Part shown: positions 304 through 4,433 of the stretch, piece after piece | How the letters are laid out: each line of letters starts with the position of its first letter | Numbering within the stretch: the stretch's first letter is position 1 | Origin: a virus | Taxonomy: Duplodnaviria; Heunggongvirae; Uroviricota; Caudoviricetes | IMG/VR virus record: IMGVR_UViG_2547132270_000012 | Length of the DNA: 4,453 nt | Reading direction: 5' to 3' (one strand) | Program-made: the position numbers and the translations under genes | Notes under the pieces: generated by a model | The model's database searches: none | What the model saw: the letters and a program-made list of their open reading frames with translations, nothing else | Told to the model about the DNA's origin: nothing

Positions 304-926
304 TTTTGAATCACCGTTGTTGCATAGGAATAAATAAAAGGGAGTTTTACATATTTCTGGTCAATGGCATCTTTCAGAAAATAGCCTATACCATCGCCAT
401 ACTCTGGTATCTGAATAGAAAAAACACTGTCCGATACAGTCACACTCACATCAAAAGTATGCTGTAACGGCGGGTCTATTCCGTTTTTTCCATGAATAAA
501 CCGCGCCACACGGCGCTTTAACCAGTCAATGCAGAAATGCGAACCGTCAGCCTTATAAAAATTCCACGTTAATATTCGTTTAAAATAATCATCAGGAACA
601 TACGATGCCTGCCCCGGAACGTAATTCCGCATTGCTGCATACGGGATCGTATTGTATTCAATGGTATCGTATGCGCCGCGTGCAATAGCCTCCTCGGAAA
701 CCTGTAGTAAAGGCCTTTCAACGCCATAAATACCAAGCGCAATCCAGTCCAGCAACTGTCCGGTTATTGACTCCGATGTCCAGCATGGCAACGCCAGTTT
801 ATTGAGTGAATCGAGATATTCCTGAGCGATTTCATTGTATGCATCAAAGAACGCAACAATATTCGGATCATCTCTGTACTGTACAAATGGATAAGCAGGA
901 AGAATTTTCTCAGTCAGATATTGCAT
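300..926 (-). CDS. phage baseplate wedge/tail protein, Mu gp48-like (DUF2612-type)
   Basis: Track ORF 300-1034 trimmed to the ATG at 926 (MQYLTEKILPAYPFVQYRDDPNIV...), which has an AGG about 9 nt upstream. The 36 codons upstream of it lie inside the J-like gene in another frame and are R/W/H-rich and not protein-like. Stop is TGA at 302-300; 208 aa. Size and position between a J-like gene and a fibre gene match the Mu gp48 family; the family assignment is from memory, not a search. Confidence 0.65.
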   Translation of the reverse strand: MQYLTEKILPAYPFVQYRDDPNIVAFFDAYNEIAQEYLDSLNKLALPCWTSESITGQLLDWIALGIYGVERPLLQVSEEAIARGAYDTIEYNTIPYAAMRNYVPGQASYVPDDYFKRILTWNFYKADGSHFCIDWLKRRVARFIHGKNGIDPPLQHTFDVSVTVSDSVFSIQIPEYGDGIGYFLKDAIDQKYVKLPFIYSYATTVIQK

Positions 927-2136
927 ACTTGTTGACCTGAACCTGTGATGCCACCGTCGAAAAATAAGAATAGGTATCGCCATAAACCAGACTCGTATCT
1001 TTCGTAGGCGAGACAATATGGCCGTTAATACCAATGCTCACACTAATTGTTGAGATCAACGTCGCATCAACCAGCAGCCTGACAGAACTGGTAAAAATAT
1101 CCTGGATACGCAGAAGATTTATCGGGTGTCCGACTTCAATTGAATTGATGTAATCAGCAACGTTTTGCTGCACAGCCATAGCAATACCCGCCGGATCAAC
1201 ATAATCATCAGACACCGTGTTCCAGGTGATTAGCACCATGACATTTTGTGATGACGGGATAACGAAAGGCACCTGATAAACGTCCGGCGAAACGGTTATT
1301 GAAACCGTGCGTTTTTCCACTGCCGCACCGGACGGATTGCTAACATCGTTGGTCAGTTTCGAAATATCCGGTACAGATTTGTAAATCGCATAAGCCACAT
1401 CATACGGATCACCGCCACCAACAACCGCAACCCATTTCCCCAGCGACGACTGCCGGAAAGAAATCAGGTTTTCGCGCACACCGCTTACTGATTTGAGCAT
1501 CGCTTTAAAGCAATCCGGTGTTCCCTGCACACCAAACATGCCGGACTCCATGACTTCGGCGCGGTATGATGCCCACGTCTGCGCCTCCTGACCGGGCATA
1601 CCTGCGGTAAGGTTCGTGCATTTTACAGGCTGATCTTTGGGTACCGATGTAATGACCTGCGTTACGGTTCCTTCCGGTACAGCCCATGAGCCTGACGTTG
1701 TGGCCACACAGTAGACTGGCTCAGTCTGCCCGCTTTCCGGTACCACCGTATCGCGGGAAACTGCATACTGGTAGTTGCCGTCACCGACAACAAATCCTTT
1801 AGGGATACCAAACCCCGGCAACGCCTCAAACACCACGTATACCGCCGTATTTGTACTTAATCCCTTCTGTGCTCCATAAATGTTTCCGAGTTGCATCAGT
1901 AACGGAATATTCGCGCCGTATGGGCTTACGGAGTTAATAAGATCAACCCGCGCCTGGTCTATTAATGCCAGCGCCCCGACTGCCGTGCTGGCAAGGTCTG
2001 TAATAAGTCCCGCCGGAAGGTTGGCTGTATATCCAGGTACTTTTTCGGCAACTCTGGTGATAAGATTCGCGAGCAAATCATTGGGTGGCGTAGGCTGCGC
2101 ACCCGCACTGGTCATAGTAATTGGTATTTCTGACAT
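910..2136 (-). CDS. baseplate J-like protein (Mu gp47 / P2 gpJ family)
   Basis: Long minus-strand frame (track 910-2178, which begins at a TTG). The first ATG, at 2136 (MSEIPITMTSAG...), is preferred; ATG 2115 is also possible. Stop is TGA at 912-910; 408 aa from 2136. The protein has the Gly/Val/Thr-rich block typical of Baseplate_J proteins (...LGNIYGAQKGLSTNTAVYVVFEALPGFGIPKGFVVGDGNYQYAV...VYCVATTSGSWAVPEGTVTQVITSVP...). Overlaps the next gene by 17 nt. Confidence 0.75.
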   Translation of the reverse strand: MSEIPITMTSAGAQPTPPNDLLANLITRVAEKVPGYTANLPAGLITDLASTAVGALALIDQARVDLINSVSPYGANIPLLMQLGNIYGAQKGLSTNTAVYVVFEALPGFGIPKGFVVGDGNYQYAVSRDTVVPESGQTEPVYCVATTSGSWAVPEGTVTQVITSVPKDQPVKCTNLTAGMPGQEAQTWASYRAEVMESGMFGVQGTPDCFKAMLKSVSGVRENLISFRQSSLGKWVAVVGGGDPYDVAYAIYKSVPDISKLTNDVSNPSGAAVEKRTVSITVSPDVYQVPFVIPSSQNVMVLITWNTVSDDYVDPAGIAMAVQQNVADYINSIEVGHPINLLRIQDIFTSSVRLLVDATLISTISVSIGINGHIVSPTKDTSLVYGDTYSYFSTVASQVQVNKYAISD

Positions 2137-2163
2137 ATTTAAAACCCATATAGGAGATTTTCG

Positions 2164-2766
2164 ATGGACAGCATTCAACTGGAAAATATAAGGAAAGAAA
2201 AGCCAGACAACATTTTCATAATTTTAGGAATTATTCTTATTAACCTTTTCCTATTATCATTTCTCTACATTCCCGAAAAATATGATCGTGTAATAACATT
2301 CACCTTCGCACTTTCAATCATATTATTAATTTATCTTGATTCCAGATTGTTAACAAAATCTGGGTATGAACCAACTATTTCAAGAGCATGGGTGATACTG
2401 TTCGGCGCATTCTTTTTTGTTTTCTGGGTATGGAAACGCTACACATGGTTCGGAGATAAAACAAGGATTCTTTTCTGGGTATTATTGTTATCGACAGGCG
2501 TATCTTTTTATTATTCATATAATACAGAGAACAATAAAATGCTTGGTGAAACAGCCTGTGAATTATCAACTCAAATCATGAGCGAACAATACAACCGCCC
2601 CGATATAAAGTGTTCAAGGGTCGTTGAAATTAAGGAAATTGATAATAATTTCTATAAGGCCAGAGCCATATTTAACAACGGCACAACACAAAGCATTACT
2701 ATAGATGTTAGAAAAGAAAATGGACAAGAGATGGTGTATGTAAGCCTAAATCCTTTAGGTAATTGA
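2164..2766 (+). CDS. hypothetical polytopic membrane protein (4 predicted TM helices plus ~80-aa C-terminal globular domain); candidate superinfection-exclusion factor
   Basis: ATG at 2164 preceded by a strong SD, AGGAG (2153-2157), with a 6-nt spacer. 200 aa with four hydrophobic stretches (about residues 17-36, 43-58, 75-90, 102-119) and a polar C-terminal domain (...CELSTQIMSEQYNRPDIKCSRVVEIKEIDNNFYKARAIFNNGTTQSITIDVRKENGQEMVYVSL...). GC is about 33% by hand count over ten 60-nt lines, against about 55% in the adjacent J-like gene. Function is an inference. Confidence 0.75.
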   Translation: MDSIQLENIRKEKPDNIFIILGIILINLFLLSFLYIPEKYDRVITFTFALSIILLIYLDSRLLTKSGYEPTISRAWVILFGAFFFVFWVWKRYTWFGDKTRILFWVLLLSTGVSFYYSYNTENNKMLGETACELSTQIMSEQYNRPDIKCSRVVEIKEIDNNFYKARAIFNNGTTQSITIDVRKENGQEMVYVSLNPLGN

Positions 2767-2785
2767 TCCCCACCCCTTTACAATC

Positions 2786-2811
2786 GCGCCCAATAAAGTA
2801 TGATTGGGCGC
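2786..2811 (+). promoter_or_regulatory. perfect 9-bp stem hairpin (GCGCCCAAT / ATTGGGCGC, 8-nt loop) 20 nt after the membrane-gene stop
   Basis: Arms at 2786-2794 and 2803-2811 are exact reverse complements. No U-tract follows on either strand, so it is not a classic intrinsic terminator; it could be an RNA stability or processing element or a protein-binding palindrome. Confidence 0.4.
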
Positions 2812-2846
2812 ATGAGGCGTCGAAACCTCTTACAAGCGGTACACAA

Positions 2847-2872
2847 CCAACCCCGTTAGTGTTGGATTTTTT
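2847..2872 (+). terminator. weak intrinsic-terminator candidate (5-bp stem CCAAC/GTTGG, 9-nt loop, then A-TTTTTT)
   Basis: Stem at 2847-2851 / 2861-2865 followed by a T6 run at 2867-2872, about 80 nt downstream of the membrane-gene stop. The stem is short, so any termination is probably partial. Confidence 0.3.
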
Positions 2873-2886
2873 ATGCCTGCTATTTA

Positions 2887-2909
2887 GTGATGGCACGATG
2901 TGCGATCAC
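2887..2909. promoter_or_regulatory. 23-bp near-palindrome (GTGATGGCAC-GAT-GTGCGATCAC), candidate operator
   Basis: 10-bp arms match in inverted orientation at 9 of 10 positions with a 3-bp spacer. It lies 13 bp upstream of the structured RNA element and about 130 bp upstream of the antirepressor-like gene. No convincing sigma70 -35/-10 pair could be assigned by eye. Confidence 0.3.
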
Positions 2910-2921
2910 ATCCCCGATCAA

Positions 2922-3002
2922 TGTCGGGAGGGCGACGAATACAACACCCGAAAGGGGAATAAGTCCGCGGTACTTGTAGCCGTTTCGAACCTCCCGACAC
3001 CA
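2922..3002 (+). ncRNA. tRNA-acceptor-like structured RNA element, candidate C4-like antisense/cis-regulatory RNA controlling the downstream antirepressor gene
   Basis: Perfect 10-bp inverted repeat TGTCGGGAGG (2922-2931) / CCTCCCGACA (2990-2999) enclosing 58 nt, followed directly by ACCA, giving an acceptor-stem-plus-NCCA look. It contains an internal CCC-GAAA-GGG tetraloop hairpin (2947-2956). Segment 2973-2989 is reverse-complementary at 14 of 17 positions to 3015-3031, next to the SD of the following gene. There is no canonical D or T arm, so it is not a tRNA. Strand and exact ends are inferred. Confidence 0.45.
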
Positions 3003-3014
3003 CTTTGGTTCTTC

Positions 3015-3034
3015 TTCGAAAAAGATACAAGAGG
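3015..3034 (+). promoter_or_regulatory. predicted target/anti-SD pairing site overlapping the ribosome-binding site of the AntA-like gene
   Basis: TTCGAAAAAGATACAAG (3015-3031) pairs with 2973-2989 as 7 bp + 1 bp + 6 bp. The SD AGAGG is at 3030-3034 and the ATG at 3040. Confidence 0.4.
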
Positions 3035-3039
3035 TTACT

Positions 3040-3609
3040 ATGACCATCCAACTGATTCCCGTTTTCAGCGGAACTATCTCAAACGAAACTATCCTTCTAT
3101 GCAATGCACGTGATTTACACGATTTTCTTGAAGTAGGAAAAGTGTTTGCAGCCTGGATTAACGCTCGCATTGAAGAGTATGGATTCGAAGAAAATAAGGA
3201 TTTTGTAGTTTTTTCCAATTCTGGAAAAAATAGCGTAGGTCGTCGCCGCAAGGACTACCACCTAACCCTGGACACCGCCAAAGAGCTGGCGATGGTTGAG
3301 CGCAACGAAAAAGGCCGCCAGATCCGCCGATACTTTATCGAGTGCGAGAAAAAGCTGCGCGATGCAACTCCAGACCGCAACAAAATCATCCACGGTTCTC
3401 CTCGAACTGTTGTCATCCGGTTGGACGACACCGGAAATGTCATTTATACCGAAACCGTACCGACTGATGCCGTAGTCTGCACACCTGAAAGTTATAAACA
3501 GTGGATGGAAAAATGCGGCTGGCTGGTCATTCGCCAGGAAGAACTACGACATATCACGCTGGACAGACTTTTTGCCGGATATGCTCAAACCGGAACCTGC
3601 GTCCGGTAA
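3040..3609 (+). CDS. AntA/AntB-family phage antirepressor-like protein (N-terminal AntA domain plus uncharacterised ~75-aa C-terminal region)
   Basis: ATG at 3040 with SD AGAGG and a 5-nt spacer; stop TAA at 3607-3609; 189 aa. The N-terminal ~110 aa carry the motif pattern I recall for AntA-type antirepressors (LIPVFSG...NARDLHDFLEVGK.F..WI..RIEEYGF.EN.DF.......DYHLTLDTAKELAMVERNEKGRQIRRYFIECEKKL). The domain call is from memory, not a search. Confidence 0.75.
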   Translation: MTIQLIPVFSGTISNETILLCNARDLHDFLEVGKVFAAWINARIEEYGFEENKDFVVFSNSGKNSVGRRRKDYHLTLDTAKELAMVERNEKGRQIRRYFIECEKKLRDATPDRNKIIHGSPRTVVIRLDDTGNVIYTETVPTDAVVCTPESYKQWMEKCGWLVIRQEELRHITLDRLFAGYAQTGTCVR

Positions 3610-3932
3610 CTGGTTCCGTTAAAAAACACAACATCGATGTTATAGGTGGGGTTCTCTGCCCCATCTACCTTTGAAATGGCCAATGATGCAAAATACCCGG
3701 CAAACTGTTGCTGAACCATGTTCACATAGTAGTCTGGGTAAATCTGCTGCACGATGCACTGCTGCGCAGGAATACCGTAATTCGCGTAAAACGGCGACTC
3801 CCCCAACCCCAGCTTTAACGTCTGAATGAGCGTCGTCAGCCAGCCGTAGGAGAAATCACCGTTGGCGTCAGATTCTACTGCAACCCATTTTTTGTTGCCG
3901 TTCGCGTCGGTGACGCGGCCCCATGTTCTCAT
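3585..3932 (-). CDS. hypothetical protein (115 aa), third gene of the small minus-strand cluster
   Basis: ATG at 3932 with SD GAAAGG and a 7-nt spacer; stop TGA at 3587-3585. GC is about 50% and the sequence is non-repetitive. Its 3' end overlaps the 3' end of the convergent antirepressor-like gene by 25 bp. Function unknown; a weak gp25/GPW-like G-x7-YG motif was noted but not accepted. Confidence 0.6.
   Translation of the reverse strand: MRTWGRVTDANGNKKWVAVESDANGDFSYGWLTTLIQTLKLGLGESPFYANYGIPAQQCIVQQIYPDYYVNMVQQQFAGYFASLAISKVDGAENPTYNIDVVFFNGTSYRTQVPV
3591..3618. other. hairpin (CGGAACC / GGTTCCG, 14-nt loop) at the convergent 3'-end overlap of the antirepressor-like and 115-aa genes
   Basis: 7-bp inverted repeat spanning the TAA stop of the plus-strand gene. 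It is followed on the plus strand by an A-rich tract (TTAAAAAACAC) rather than U-rich, so it is not a canonical terminator in either direction. Confidence 0.3.
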
Positions 3933-3935
3933 ACG

Positions 3936-4100
3936 TCAACCTTTCAAGTAAATTAGGGTGCCGGTAACCAGAGCGGTGCAAATGATCCACGCTACTGGAG
4001 TCAGAATATGCCGAATACCCCGACATACTGCGATTATTCTCGCAGCCTTATCAGCTCCTTTTGGGGTTGTCTCAGCCTTAAAAATCAGTTCGCTATCCAT
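3936..4100 (-). CDS. small hypothetical membrane protein (54 aa; below the ORF-track length cutoff)
   Basis: Hand translation gives ATG at 4100-4098 and TGA at 3938-3936 (MDSELIFKAETTPKGADKAARIIAVCRGIRHILTPVAWIICTALVTGTLIYLKG). SD AAAGG sits 6-7 nt upstream. The ATG overlaps the end of the preceding ORF, and the stop lies 3 nt before the ATG of the 115-aa gene. One C-terminal hydrophobic helix. Coding status rests on the compact arrangement. Confidence 0.4.
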   Translation of the reverse strand: MDSELIFKAETTPKGADKAARIIAVCRGIRHILTPVAWIICTALVTGTLIYLKG

Positions 4101-4287
4101 TTAGAACCTTTATGATCTCTGCGATCCCCGGAAGAGATTTGGCAACTGCAAACCCTCCGATAACTATAAGAACTGCATAAAACATTCTTCTCAGAACCGG
4201 ACTTCTTTCGAGCAATTTTAGAGCTTCCACAATCCAGTCTCCTCCGCTAAAATTAATCACGGAAGACCTCCAAACATACGTAATCAT
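4093..4287 (-). CDS. small hypothetical membrane protein (64 aa from ATG 4287, or 55 aa from GTG 4260)
   Basis: Track ORF; stop TAG at 4095-4093. The ATG at 4287 has a poorly spaced SD, whereas the in-frame GTG at 4260-4258 is preceded by GGAGG with a 6-nt spacer, so the shorter form may be the real one. Hydrophobic C-terminal half (MFYAVLIVIGGFAVAKSLPGIAEII). Confidence 0.4.
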   Translation of the reverse strand: MITYVWRSSVINFSGGDWIVEALKLLERSPVLRRMFYAVLIVIGGFAVAKSLPGIAEIIKVLNG

Positions 4288-4315
4288 CCCTTGCCTTATT
4301 CAAGGTCAGAAACAG

Positions 4316-4347
4316 AAAGCCCCGACTGTTTGCCCAGTCGGGGCTTT
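4316..4347. terminator. strong intrinsic (rho-independent) terminator, probably bidirectional
   Basis: 13-bp perfect stem AAAGCCCCGACTG / CAGTCGGGGCTTT (GC-rich 10-bp core) with a 6-nt loop TTTGCC. U-rich tracts follow on both strands (plus CGCTTTAT; minus TTTCTGTTTCTG). Confidence 0.7.
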
Positions 4348-4433
4348 CGCTTTATGGATGTAATTTAAAGTGAGCCGGTATTAACCCGGATTTGGTTGCT
4401 TCGACGTGATCGTGCTGCCGCCGCTTTGAACGC

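Follow-up and report, generated by a model that had tools for sequence, protein, structure and literature searches.

An sRNA-Xcc1 leader RNA covarying with two target sites at a putative antirepressor gene, in a variable slot between baseplate genes of an Escherichia coli prophage

The DNA considered here, IMG/VR record IMGVR_UViG_2547132270_000012, is a stretch of 4453 bp comprising a whole contig of an Escherichia coli draft assembly (AEJY01000214.1), and is referred to below as the window. Its minus strand carries, from left to right, the 3' end of a fibre-like gene, a 208-aa gene (PHROG 8212), a gene for a baseplate J/gp47-like protein (hereafter J) and, beyond an interval, a 115-aa gene, which is followed by two overlapping small open reading frames (ORFs) for transmembrane (TM) proteins, a strong terminator hairpin and the end of a baseplate V-like gene. 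The interval between J and the 115-aa gene, with which this analysis is concerned, is occupied on the plus strand by a gene for a TM protein, a 273-nt intergenic region with a structured RNA of the sRNA-Xcc1 family, and a gene encoding an AntA-domain protein, here termed ant. This arrangement of plus-strand genes and RNA between minus-strand genes, including its coordinates, is as described in an initial annotation made from the window alone. The features of the window, in which the interval is treated as a slot for cargo anchored by its two flanking genes, are as follows.

910-2136, minus strand: baseplate J/gp47-like gene, 408 aa, left anchor of the slot (Pfam Baseplate_J, 8e-8; PHROG 6, baseplate wedge subunit, 5e-38)
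2137-2163, plus strand: 27-bp gap from the J start to the cargo gene, with the Shine-Dalgarno (SD) sequence of the cargo gene, AGGAG, at 2152-2156 (read from the sequence)
2164-2766, plus strand: low-GC cargo gene, 200 aa, TM protein (ORF)
2777-2811, plus strand: candidate ant promoter and inverted repeat (promoter scan)
2814-2836, plus strand: upstream target copy, a1b1 (covariation)
2847-2872, plus strand: terminator-like leader hairpin (fold and conservation)
2923-3006, plus strand: sRNA-Xcc1-family RNA (Rfam RF02221)
3015-3034, plus strand: downstream target copy, a2b2, at the ant translation start (covariation)
3040-3609, plus strand: putative antirepressor gene ant, 189 aa, AntA (Pfam, PHROG)
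3585-3932, minus strand: 115-aa gene, candidate for a gp25/W/Mu-gp46-like sheath initiator, right anchor of the slot (ORF)
about 3933-4365, minus strand: second variable slot, with two small TM ORFs and a terminator (ORFs, terminator scan)

The start codon of J is the complement of 2134-2136, while at the other end of the interval the 3' end of ant overlaps that of the 115-aa gene by 25 bp in antisense orientation. The GC content is 33.5% in the TM gene, 49.5% in the leader and 47.5% in ant, as compared with 49.8% in J and 50.9% in the 115-aa gene. Since the TM gene alone is low in GC, and the leader and ant match the flanks, the interval consists of two units differing in composition rather than of a single low-GC cassette. 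The drop in GC perceived earlier is thus real at about 2137-2164 and within the TM gene, and does not extend to the leader and ant, which at 47-50% resemble their surroundings; the limits assigned to the interval proved accurate on comparison of 51 distinct versions of the slot.

These versions were obtained from 69 related loci anchored on J and the 115-aa protein and drawn from phage records, IMG/VR contigs and contigs with homologues of the TM protein; a scan of genome contigs with J yielded a single distant locus. In four distant relatives (a Kluyvera chromosome, L011, and the viral contigs L068, L069 and L070), in which J is 34-47% identical, the 115-aa gene adjoins J directly, at a distance of 0-10 bp. 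The 65 closer relatives, with J 55-100% identical and in all but one at least 83%, each have the slot occupied by 587-3135 bp of varied content, and no empty slot was found among these loci, which derive from four genera (Escherichia, Citrobacter, Salmonella and a further lineage). The 51 distinct sequences comprise about 24 ORF families, including, besides Ant and several proteins with a signal peptide or of lipoprotein-like character, YafO toxin pairs of two kinds and an LprI-like, a 391-aa HSDR_N and a ProQ/FinO protein; the GC content of most cargo families is 31-37%, against 47-50% for ant and the backbone. The left edge of the slot lies within about 6 nt of the J ATG, only these first 6 or so nucleotides being common to the cargo classes, and on the right it is bounded by the stop codon (3585) of the 115-aa gene. 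Because the flanking genes are contiguous in the distant relatives, and variable cargo lies between fixed boundaries in the close ones, the content of the slot is read as an insertion: on the evidence of these alignments, positions 2137-3584 represent a conserved, moron-type cargo slot in its occupied form, the empty form being ancestral. The initial suggestion that a moron has split the run of baseplate genes is borne out by the same two groups of relatives.

Of the 65 close relatives, 31 contain both the RNA and ant, seven contain an ant gene truncated at its 5' end and devoid of the leader, and 27 lack ant; about half of the slot occupants combine variable cargo with a semi-resident antirepressor module. 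A truncated ant, without promoter, leader or RNA, is found in L002 (PP818812.1, 'Actinobacillus phage vB_Apl-pPE4'), which is 94.5% identical to the window region over the common parts and has the same gene order; its stated host looks doubtful. Among the loci without ant, 22 (L024, L052 and 20 others) carry on the tail-gene strand the gene for the 391-aa protein with an HSDR_N domain of type I restriction, which may be a defence gene, followed by a strong bidirectional terminator.

One question then is whether a prophage with cargo among its baseplate genes is still intact. It had been proposed that the prophage is rearranged or defective and, on that account, the cassette would be debris; the window is indeed a short draft contig, insertion sequence elements occur in this region in some relatives, and the seven leaderless ant genes are visibly truncated. 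Yet the gene order is identical in the 65 relatives across four genera, the same layout recurs in deposited phage genomes, and all ORFs of the window are intact. The ratio of nonsynonymous to synonymous substitution rates (dN/dS) lies between 0.02 and 0.08 for J, the 208-aa gene and the 115-aa gene across the lineages with an occupied slot (0.04-0.06 for J). Because of these values, J and its neighbours are judged to be under strong purifying selection and the prophage not to be defective, and we regard decay or rearrangement as barely credible. The expectation that further baseplate genes should lie upstream on the strand of J was sound, but these genes appear not to be missing. The 237-aa gene past the 115-aa gene is annotated as baseplate V-like and lies on the same strand as J. 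The 115-aa gene, positioned between the two, looks like a candidate for the gp25/W/Mu-gp46 sheath initiator; a phmmer search of the PDB with its product gave no match, and its 724 homologues are all unannotated.

A second consequence drawn initially was that J would require a promoter inside the cassette. According to this proposal, the cassette blocks late transcription, and a dedicated minus-strand promoter within it drives J together with the gp48-like and fibre genes. There is a promoter-like site on the minus strand at 2727-2698 (9/12) inside the TM gene, and translational coupling is removed by the 27-bp gap and because the 115-aa gene and J no longer overlap. Such sites, however, occur at chance level (5 found against 4.8 expected), the promoter scan giving none directed towards J above chance in the window, and the site in question sits in cargo that varies among relatives and so offers no general solution. 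Nor did the terminator scan find any minus-strand terminator within the cassette. In the HSDR_N class (22 loci) the J strand carries a strong terminator hairpin, AAAAAACCCGCGAAAGCGGGTTTTTT, with a folding energy of -17.4 kcal/mol and a z-score of -4.85, the end of which is some 13 nt short of the J ATG; in the LprI-like class (four loci) a weaker terminator hairpin (-11.3 kcal/mol) lies within a few bases of the J start. In both classes the cargo lies on the tail strand, and in these 26 loci the terminator between cargo and J leaves no room for a promoter. Our terminator scan misses such J-adjacent hairpins in relatives, as checked on L052 and L023, and they were folded separately instead; the scan appears to miss them through the absorption of flanking A and T runs into the stem.

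The complete relative Rac-SA53 is a Rac-type lambdoid phage in which the Q antiterminator is followed by lysis, terminase, head, tail and fibre genes, all on one strand. Polymerase modified by Q is known for terminator-resistant read-through. Since a terminator stands directly upstream of J in relatives, and in view of the Q gene and single-strand late region of Rac-SA53 and the established behaviour of Q-modified polymerase, J probably needs no promoter of its own and is reached by terminator-resistant read-through; the J, gp48-like and fibre genes would then be transcribed by the Q-antiterminated late polymerase crossing the cassette on its opposite strand. A dedicated promoter within the cassette we therefore hold to be distinctly improbable. 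In Rac-SA53 itself (L160, record positions 20466-24628) toxin morons lie downstream of the Q and lysis genes, with annotated pertussis-like toxin subunits and heat-labile enterotoxin IIa. The conserved slot and antiterminated read-through would explain the split baseplate operon; cargo that divides an operon in this way is an ordinary feature of temperate phages.

The second of the two units in the slot is of a different interest. Its protein product, Ant, is recognised by the Pfam AntA model (PF08346) with 95.1 bits against a gathering threshold of 27 (E 3.9e-27, residues 22-89) and by PHROG 377 and 5817, both described as anti-repressor Ant, and is on these matches a putative antirepressor. 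Homology among the ant-bearing relatives starts at about 2776, just past the stop codon of the TM gene, and the best promoter match of the region follows immediately: TTTACA (2777-2782), a 16-nt spacer and TATGAT (2799-2804), with 10 of 12 positions matching, a candidate ant promoter that is kept in most of these relatives. The -10 element is spanned by a perfect 9-bp inverted repeat, GCGCCCAAT (2786-2794) and ATTGGGCGC (2803-2811) spaced by N8, which occurs once per locus, and at this position only, in 14 loci, some alleles being degenerate or having a different promoter. A possible function of this repeat is that of an operator. LexA control of ant was also considered, and no CTGT-N8-ACAG box could be read in the sequence 2767-3039; in the same interval there is no further conserved ORF, such as the Mnt or Arc repressor genes would provide.

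Between this promoter and ant lies the RNA (2923-3006), which matches the Rfam family sRNA-Xcc1 (RF02221) over model positions 1-87 with 78.1 bits against a gathering threshold of 53 (E 1e-13), and which stands directly upstream of ant in all 12 ant-bearing relatives tested (57-78 bits). Its predicted fold has an energy of -32.4 kcal/mol (z -3.7) and contains the following elements.

2923-2931 with 2990-2998, plus strand: closing stem, 9 bp
2934-2965, plus strand: hairpin 2
2966-2970 with 2980-2982, plus strand: stem of hairpin 3
2971-2979, plus strand: b' loop, TACTTGTAG
2983-2989, plus strand: a' junction, TTTCGAA
2999-3002, plus strand: 3' tail, A-CCA

The two target copies are disposed on either side of the RNA. 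The upstream copy begins with a 5' hairpin, GAGG (2814-2817) paired with CCTC (2826-2829), which holds a1, TCGAAA (2820-2825), in its loop and is followed by b1, TACAAG (2831-2836). The downstream copy consists of a2, TTCGAAA (3015-3021), and b2, TACAAG (3026-3031), the latter running into the ant SD sequence GAGG (3031-3034). Between a1b1 and the RNA the transcript would form a further hairpin, CCAAC (2847-2851) with GTTGG (2861-2865), followed by six T residues (2867-2872), which is nearly invariant across alleles, those of the Shiga toxin (Stx) phages included, and in L023, where it has a 7-bp form, the scan recognises it as a terminator. The N-CC(A/C) tail of the RNA (2999-3010 in the window) regularly serves as the 5' arm of a small hairpin (CCAC-UCCGAUA-GUGG and GCCC-AUAA-GGGC are examples), the sequence changing between alleles while the pairing is maintained.

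The evidence on which the proposed function of the RNA is founded comes from the variation of these elements. In an alignment of 19 distinct leaders the loop of hairpin 3 is the sole hypervariable part of the RNA (CUUGUA in the window and CCUCACUGA in L004, for example), and every variant of the loop has two complementary sites that vary to the same degree, b1 after the 5' hairpin and b2 at the SD sequence. A scan of viral contigs with the core of the RNA recovered 109 units with 15 distinct loops. MAFFT places gaps inside the variable loop, and the pairs of loop and target were assessed by energy and run-length permutation tests. For the duplex of the loop with b2 the cognate mean is -10.6 kcal/mol as compared with -4.7 kcal/mol for non-cognate pairs, and for that with b1 the values are -9.5 and -3.2 kcal/mol (permutation p<5e-5 in both cases), the contiguous runs of cognate pairs being 6-10 bp in length. 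The second segment, a', varies less and does so in step with its targets: each of its five variants (TTTCGAA, TTTCGAG, TTTTGAG, TTCTGAA and TTTCTAC) is complementary to its own a2, which immediately precedes the SD-proximal site, in all of the 109 units and in no non-cognate combination, and each is matched also by a1 in the loop of the 5' hairpin, which changes with a'. An independent scan with a different core variant, reaching diverse and mostly non-enteric phage contigs, gave 57 distinct RNAs, for which pairing of the RNA with the translation start region is again stronger in cognate combinations (-17.1 against -10.4 kcal/mol, p about 2e-4), and the duplexes are predicted to be bipartite, comprising a b helix, an internal loop and an a helix. 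Judged by this comparison of alleles, two segments of the RNA covary with two target copies, one of which lies over the ant SD sequence, across at least 15 specificities.

This pattern bears directly on what the RNA might act upon. The family has been catalogued since 2012 as a virulence-linked, trans-acting small RNA (sRNA) of Xanthomonas, and the published descriptions from Xanthomonas and Xylella, in which it acts in trans, propose a role on host mRNAs, in which case its place upstream of ant would be incidental. Host targets do not account for the three-way covariation that links the RNA to its flanking sites in over 160 units of diverse phages, and we consider the idea highly improbable. 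Other possibilities were considered and set aside. A family-wide pseudoknot of the window loop CUUGUA (2973-2978) with AAUACAAC (2936-2942) of the RNA itself does not accord with a loop that varies and a AAUACAAC that is invariant; in the window allele the minimum free energy (MFE) fold does pair CUUGUA with AAUACAAC, and this could make the allele partly self-masking. The MFE fold of the whole leader is a low-probability structure and was not used as evidence. An RNA of the P22 sar type was sought as well, the sole hit (24 bits against a gathering threshold of 43) being the terminator hairpin at 4290-4351, outside the cassette.

How might such a unit operate? In the order promoter, leader with a1b1 and terminator-like hairpin, sRNA-Xcc1, a2b2 over the SD sequence and ant, the a' junction and the b' loop would pair with a2b2 and so block ribosome binding on ant, whereas the same a' and b' segments could alternatively pair with a1b1, in which case a1b1 and the leader terminator may serve as an attenuator or a decoy. 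The RNA would probably be cut from the leader, since its closing stem and N-CCA tail resemble an RNase P substrate, by analogy with the P1/P7 c4, P4 CI and N15 CA RNAs, and the freed RNA would act in trans. The hypervariable b segment would then set immunity specificities, such that a resident prophage silences only those ant genes that share its own specificity. In this respect the RNA-antirepressor unit appears from its sequence to be a new form of C4-type RNA immunity that uses another RNA family, and the same seems to apply throughout that family. We class it as C4-like in its working, and not as a member of the C4 family, because the C4 model misses the RNA and Rfam places sRNA-Xcc1 in no clan.

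The most serious competitor is a leader acting purely in cis, in which a'b' toggles between a1b1 and a2b2 within one transcript, with neither a trans RNA nor any immunity specificity. All three partners are indeed present on one transcript within 220 nt, the complementarity would be explained without a trans target, and the whole-leader fold of the window has long-range pairings that involve the SD sequence. A cis switch, however, provides no reason for at least 15 b specificities in an RNA that is otherwise nearly invariant, nor for the copy of the RNA in L059 that has no ORF downstream, and the tRNA-like closing stem with its N-CC(A/C) tail matches the processed C4 RNAs; on balance we think a purely cis function rather unlikely. 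The L059 slot (about 635-1430) merits description in its own right. A gene for a ProQ/FinO-domain protein stands directly upstream of the ORF-less sRNA-Xcc1 copy, the loop of which (UAUCUUUUGGG) gives it a specificity unlike that of the L059 ant, while a second, diverged copy (57.5 bits) has the loop GUCUAUGCG, matching the SD region of its own ant, CGCAUAGGA. This arrangement is a hint of action in trans.

A different interpretation assigns toxicity to Ant and the part of antitoxin to the RNA, in a type I toxin-antitoxin or abortive-infection-like module. It draws on the occurrence of sRNA-Xcc1 upstream of the toxin gene symE in Xanthomonas integron cassettes (bioRxiv 10.1101/2025.06.18.660453) and on the YafO toxin systems in the same slot of other relatives, and no repressor target is known for the Ant of the window. 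On the other hand, the genes downstream of the scanned RNAs encode proteins of about 190 aa with the N-terminal domains of phage antirepressors (AntA, KilA-N, ORF6N, Bro-N or pRha), PADLOC finds nothing, and the closest systems by RNA logic, those of P1 and N15, control antirepressors, such that a toxin-antitoxin function is in our estimation improbable.

The unit also occurs on other phage backbones. Over 2814-3360 the window shares 79% identity with the antB region of Stx phages, and the leader-RNA-ant unit is, on this similarity, evidently mobile between backbones. In the Stx phages TL-2011c (L071) and phiSTEC801 (L072), at locus positions 2700-3870, it lies in the early-left region between the ea genes and a methylase, where it is preceded by an ORF of about 95 aa; the phiSTEC801 record calls the ORF an antirepressor. 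The 24B_1 RNA of phi24B was considered as a possible instance of the same element and proved to be a different RNA at another locus, between lom and vb_24B_43.

Several observations weigh against the account given so far. Neither Q, nor the late promoter, nor the repressor that Ant would target lies within the 4.4-kb contig of the window. The b pairing of the window allele is only 6 bp long, and its duplexes are not significant when taken alone, as 6.6% and 16% of shuffled targets do as well, so that the case for pairing rests on the comparison between alleles. The leader hairpin of the window is weak (-6.3 kcal/mol) and no better than shuffles, and no promoter of the TM gene passed the scan of the window. 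None of the C4, c4-2 and c4-a1b1 covariance models gave a C4-clan hit in the window at E<=1, although in the same kind of search the N15 and P4 RNAs score 75-79 bits for C4. Finally, the sequence fits action in cis and action in trans alike. With these points taken into account, we still consider it likely that the following hold jointly: the slot belongs to a family of lambdoid, Q-dependent, contractile-tailed prophages of the Enterobacteriaceae resembling Rac-SA53, its tail genes are served by read-through, and the second unit (2776-3609) is a self-contained anti-immunity module that dispenses with a protein repressor and is controlled by its RNA. The broader proposition is that the whole sRNA-Xcc1 family forms another class of C4-type immunity RNAs encoded in leaders, second to C4 itself and distinct from it in structure, each a bipartite antisense RNA (a' near-constant, b' hypervariable) silencing a downstream antirepressor or toxin gene, with an upstream decoy or attenuator copy and with dozens of heteroimmunity specificities across temperate phages. 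To this we would give somewhat better than even credence.

The first unit (2137-2766) offers fewer clues. Its protein has four predicted TM helices and a C-terminal domain composed of a helix and a four-stranded sheet with two invariant Cys residues, which is probably periplasmic; the AlphaFold 2 model has a pLDDT of 66 overall and of about 85 in this domain. It is a rare protein, represented by 7 clusters among 5.8 billion proteins, and every copy examined sits in this same slot; the DNA of the gene has no match in 5426 complete E. coli genomes. The protein corresponds to PHROG 12486, to which PHROG assigns no function, and gave no hit in Pfam, NCBIfam or PADLOC; Foldseek against the PDB was not significant (best E 0.07), and neither sequence nor fold searches detected similarity to characterised exclusion proteins or to SieA. 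A weak extended -10 candidate, TGaCATATT, is present at 2131-2139, and no plus-strand terminator was found after either the TM-gene unit or the ant unit. Because most of the other cargo in the slot is envelope-directed, we propose by analogy, and with low confidence, that this unit is a low-GC moron that is expressed in the lysogen and acts at its envelope, for instance in superinfection exclusion.

The baseplate V-like gene and the 115-aa gene are separated by a second, smaller variable slot, which ranges from 2 to 1528 bp in relatives, with 2 bp in L010. In the window it contains the two overlapping small ORFs, of 54 aa (3936-4100) and 64 aa (4093-4287), each encoding one hydrophobic helix, and upstream of these a strong intrinsic terminator with a 14-bp stem (4348-4315), directly after the V-like gene. 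In Salmonella the second slot holds a pRha/ORF11CD3 gene.

The significance of the locus lies in the RNA. A family without an accepted mechanism shows, in another fold, the full a1b1, a'b' and a2b2 signature known from the immunity RNAs c4, CI and CA. It fronts genes of the antirepressor type, with N-terminal domains of five kinds, in Stx phages, in the prophage family with the LT-II toxin and in many other phages. If the proposed function is correct, hundreds of annotated sRNA-Xcc1 loci would gain one, a code readable from sequence would indicate which prophages cross-induce or cross-silence one another, and RNA control of the induction of Stx and LT-II prophages would be directly testable by compensatory mutations.

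Of the known systems, the closest in working is the C4 family (RF01695, clan CL00128), which comprises the P1/P7 c4, P4 CI and N15 CA RNAs. In P1 and P7 the c4 RNA contains a' and b', with a1b1 upstream and a2b2 over the ribosome-binding site, and the allelic specificities of P1 and P7, as well as those of P4 and phiR73, differ through compensatory changes. In the N15 CA and P4 CI RNAs, which are Rfam C4 members, a closing stem is combined with two hairpins and a CaCC tail; upstream of each RNA lie c4-a1b1 and an isrK terminator. Likewise, the RNA of the window is an RNA of about 85 nt in the leader of the operon that it would control, has a closing stem, two internal hairpins and a tail of the CaCC/NCCA kind, contains segments complementary to a copy at the ribosome-binding site (a2b2) and to an upstream copy (a1b1), is separated from a1b1 by a terminator-like hairpin, and precedes a gene of the antirepressor type, albeit a putative one. 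It differs in belonging to another Rfam family, in having a closing stem of 9 bp as against 17 bp in C4, in the placement of a' in the multiloop junction and of b' in the loop of hairpin 3, and in the lack of an icd-like ORF between the RNA and ant. Moreover, whereas excision by RNase P and action in trans are known for the C4 systems, they are suggested for the RNA of the window by hints in the sequence. Within its own family, the sRNA-Xcc1 RNAs of Xanthomonas, Xylella and the APSE phages, of which the APSE copy is reported upstream of an ORF6N protein, have been described as trans-acting and virulence-related or have had their role left open; among the published accounts mentioning sRNA-Xcc1 we found none describing complementarity to the translation start of the downstream gene.

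With regard to the position of the module, the initial annotation took an antirepressor among structural genes to be unusual, yet in the P22 record the late genes 16 and 9 are separated by sieA, which encodes an exclusion protein of the membrane, and by mnt, arc, ant and the sar RNA. Both this sieA-immI region and the window combine a membrane-protein gene with an RNA-regulated antirepressor (in the window, a putative one) inside the late structural region, immediately before a tail gene that late transcription has to reach through antitermination. P22, however, has the Mnt and Arc repressors and an antisense sar RNA acting in cis from the opposite strand, whereas the window has no repressor ORF and its RNA is encoded on the sense strand, in the leader. 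The TM protein of the window has no detectable similarity to SieA, and the P22 ant is co-directional with the late genes, while the module of the window is convergent with them. The cassette as such belongs to a familiar kind, that of the morons and hot spots exemplified by lom and bor of lambda, old, tin and Z/fun of P2 and the defence hotspots of P2-like and P4-like elements, with which the slot shares a fixed position and variable, mostly low-GC cargo of such kinds as envelope proteins, toxin-antitoxin pairs and a restriction-like protein. What distinguishes the slot from these is its location inside the run of baseplate genes, between the gp25-like gene and J, and the addition, in about half of its occupants, of the semi-resident antirepressor module.

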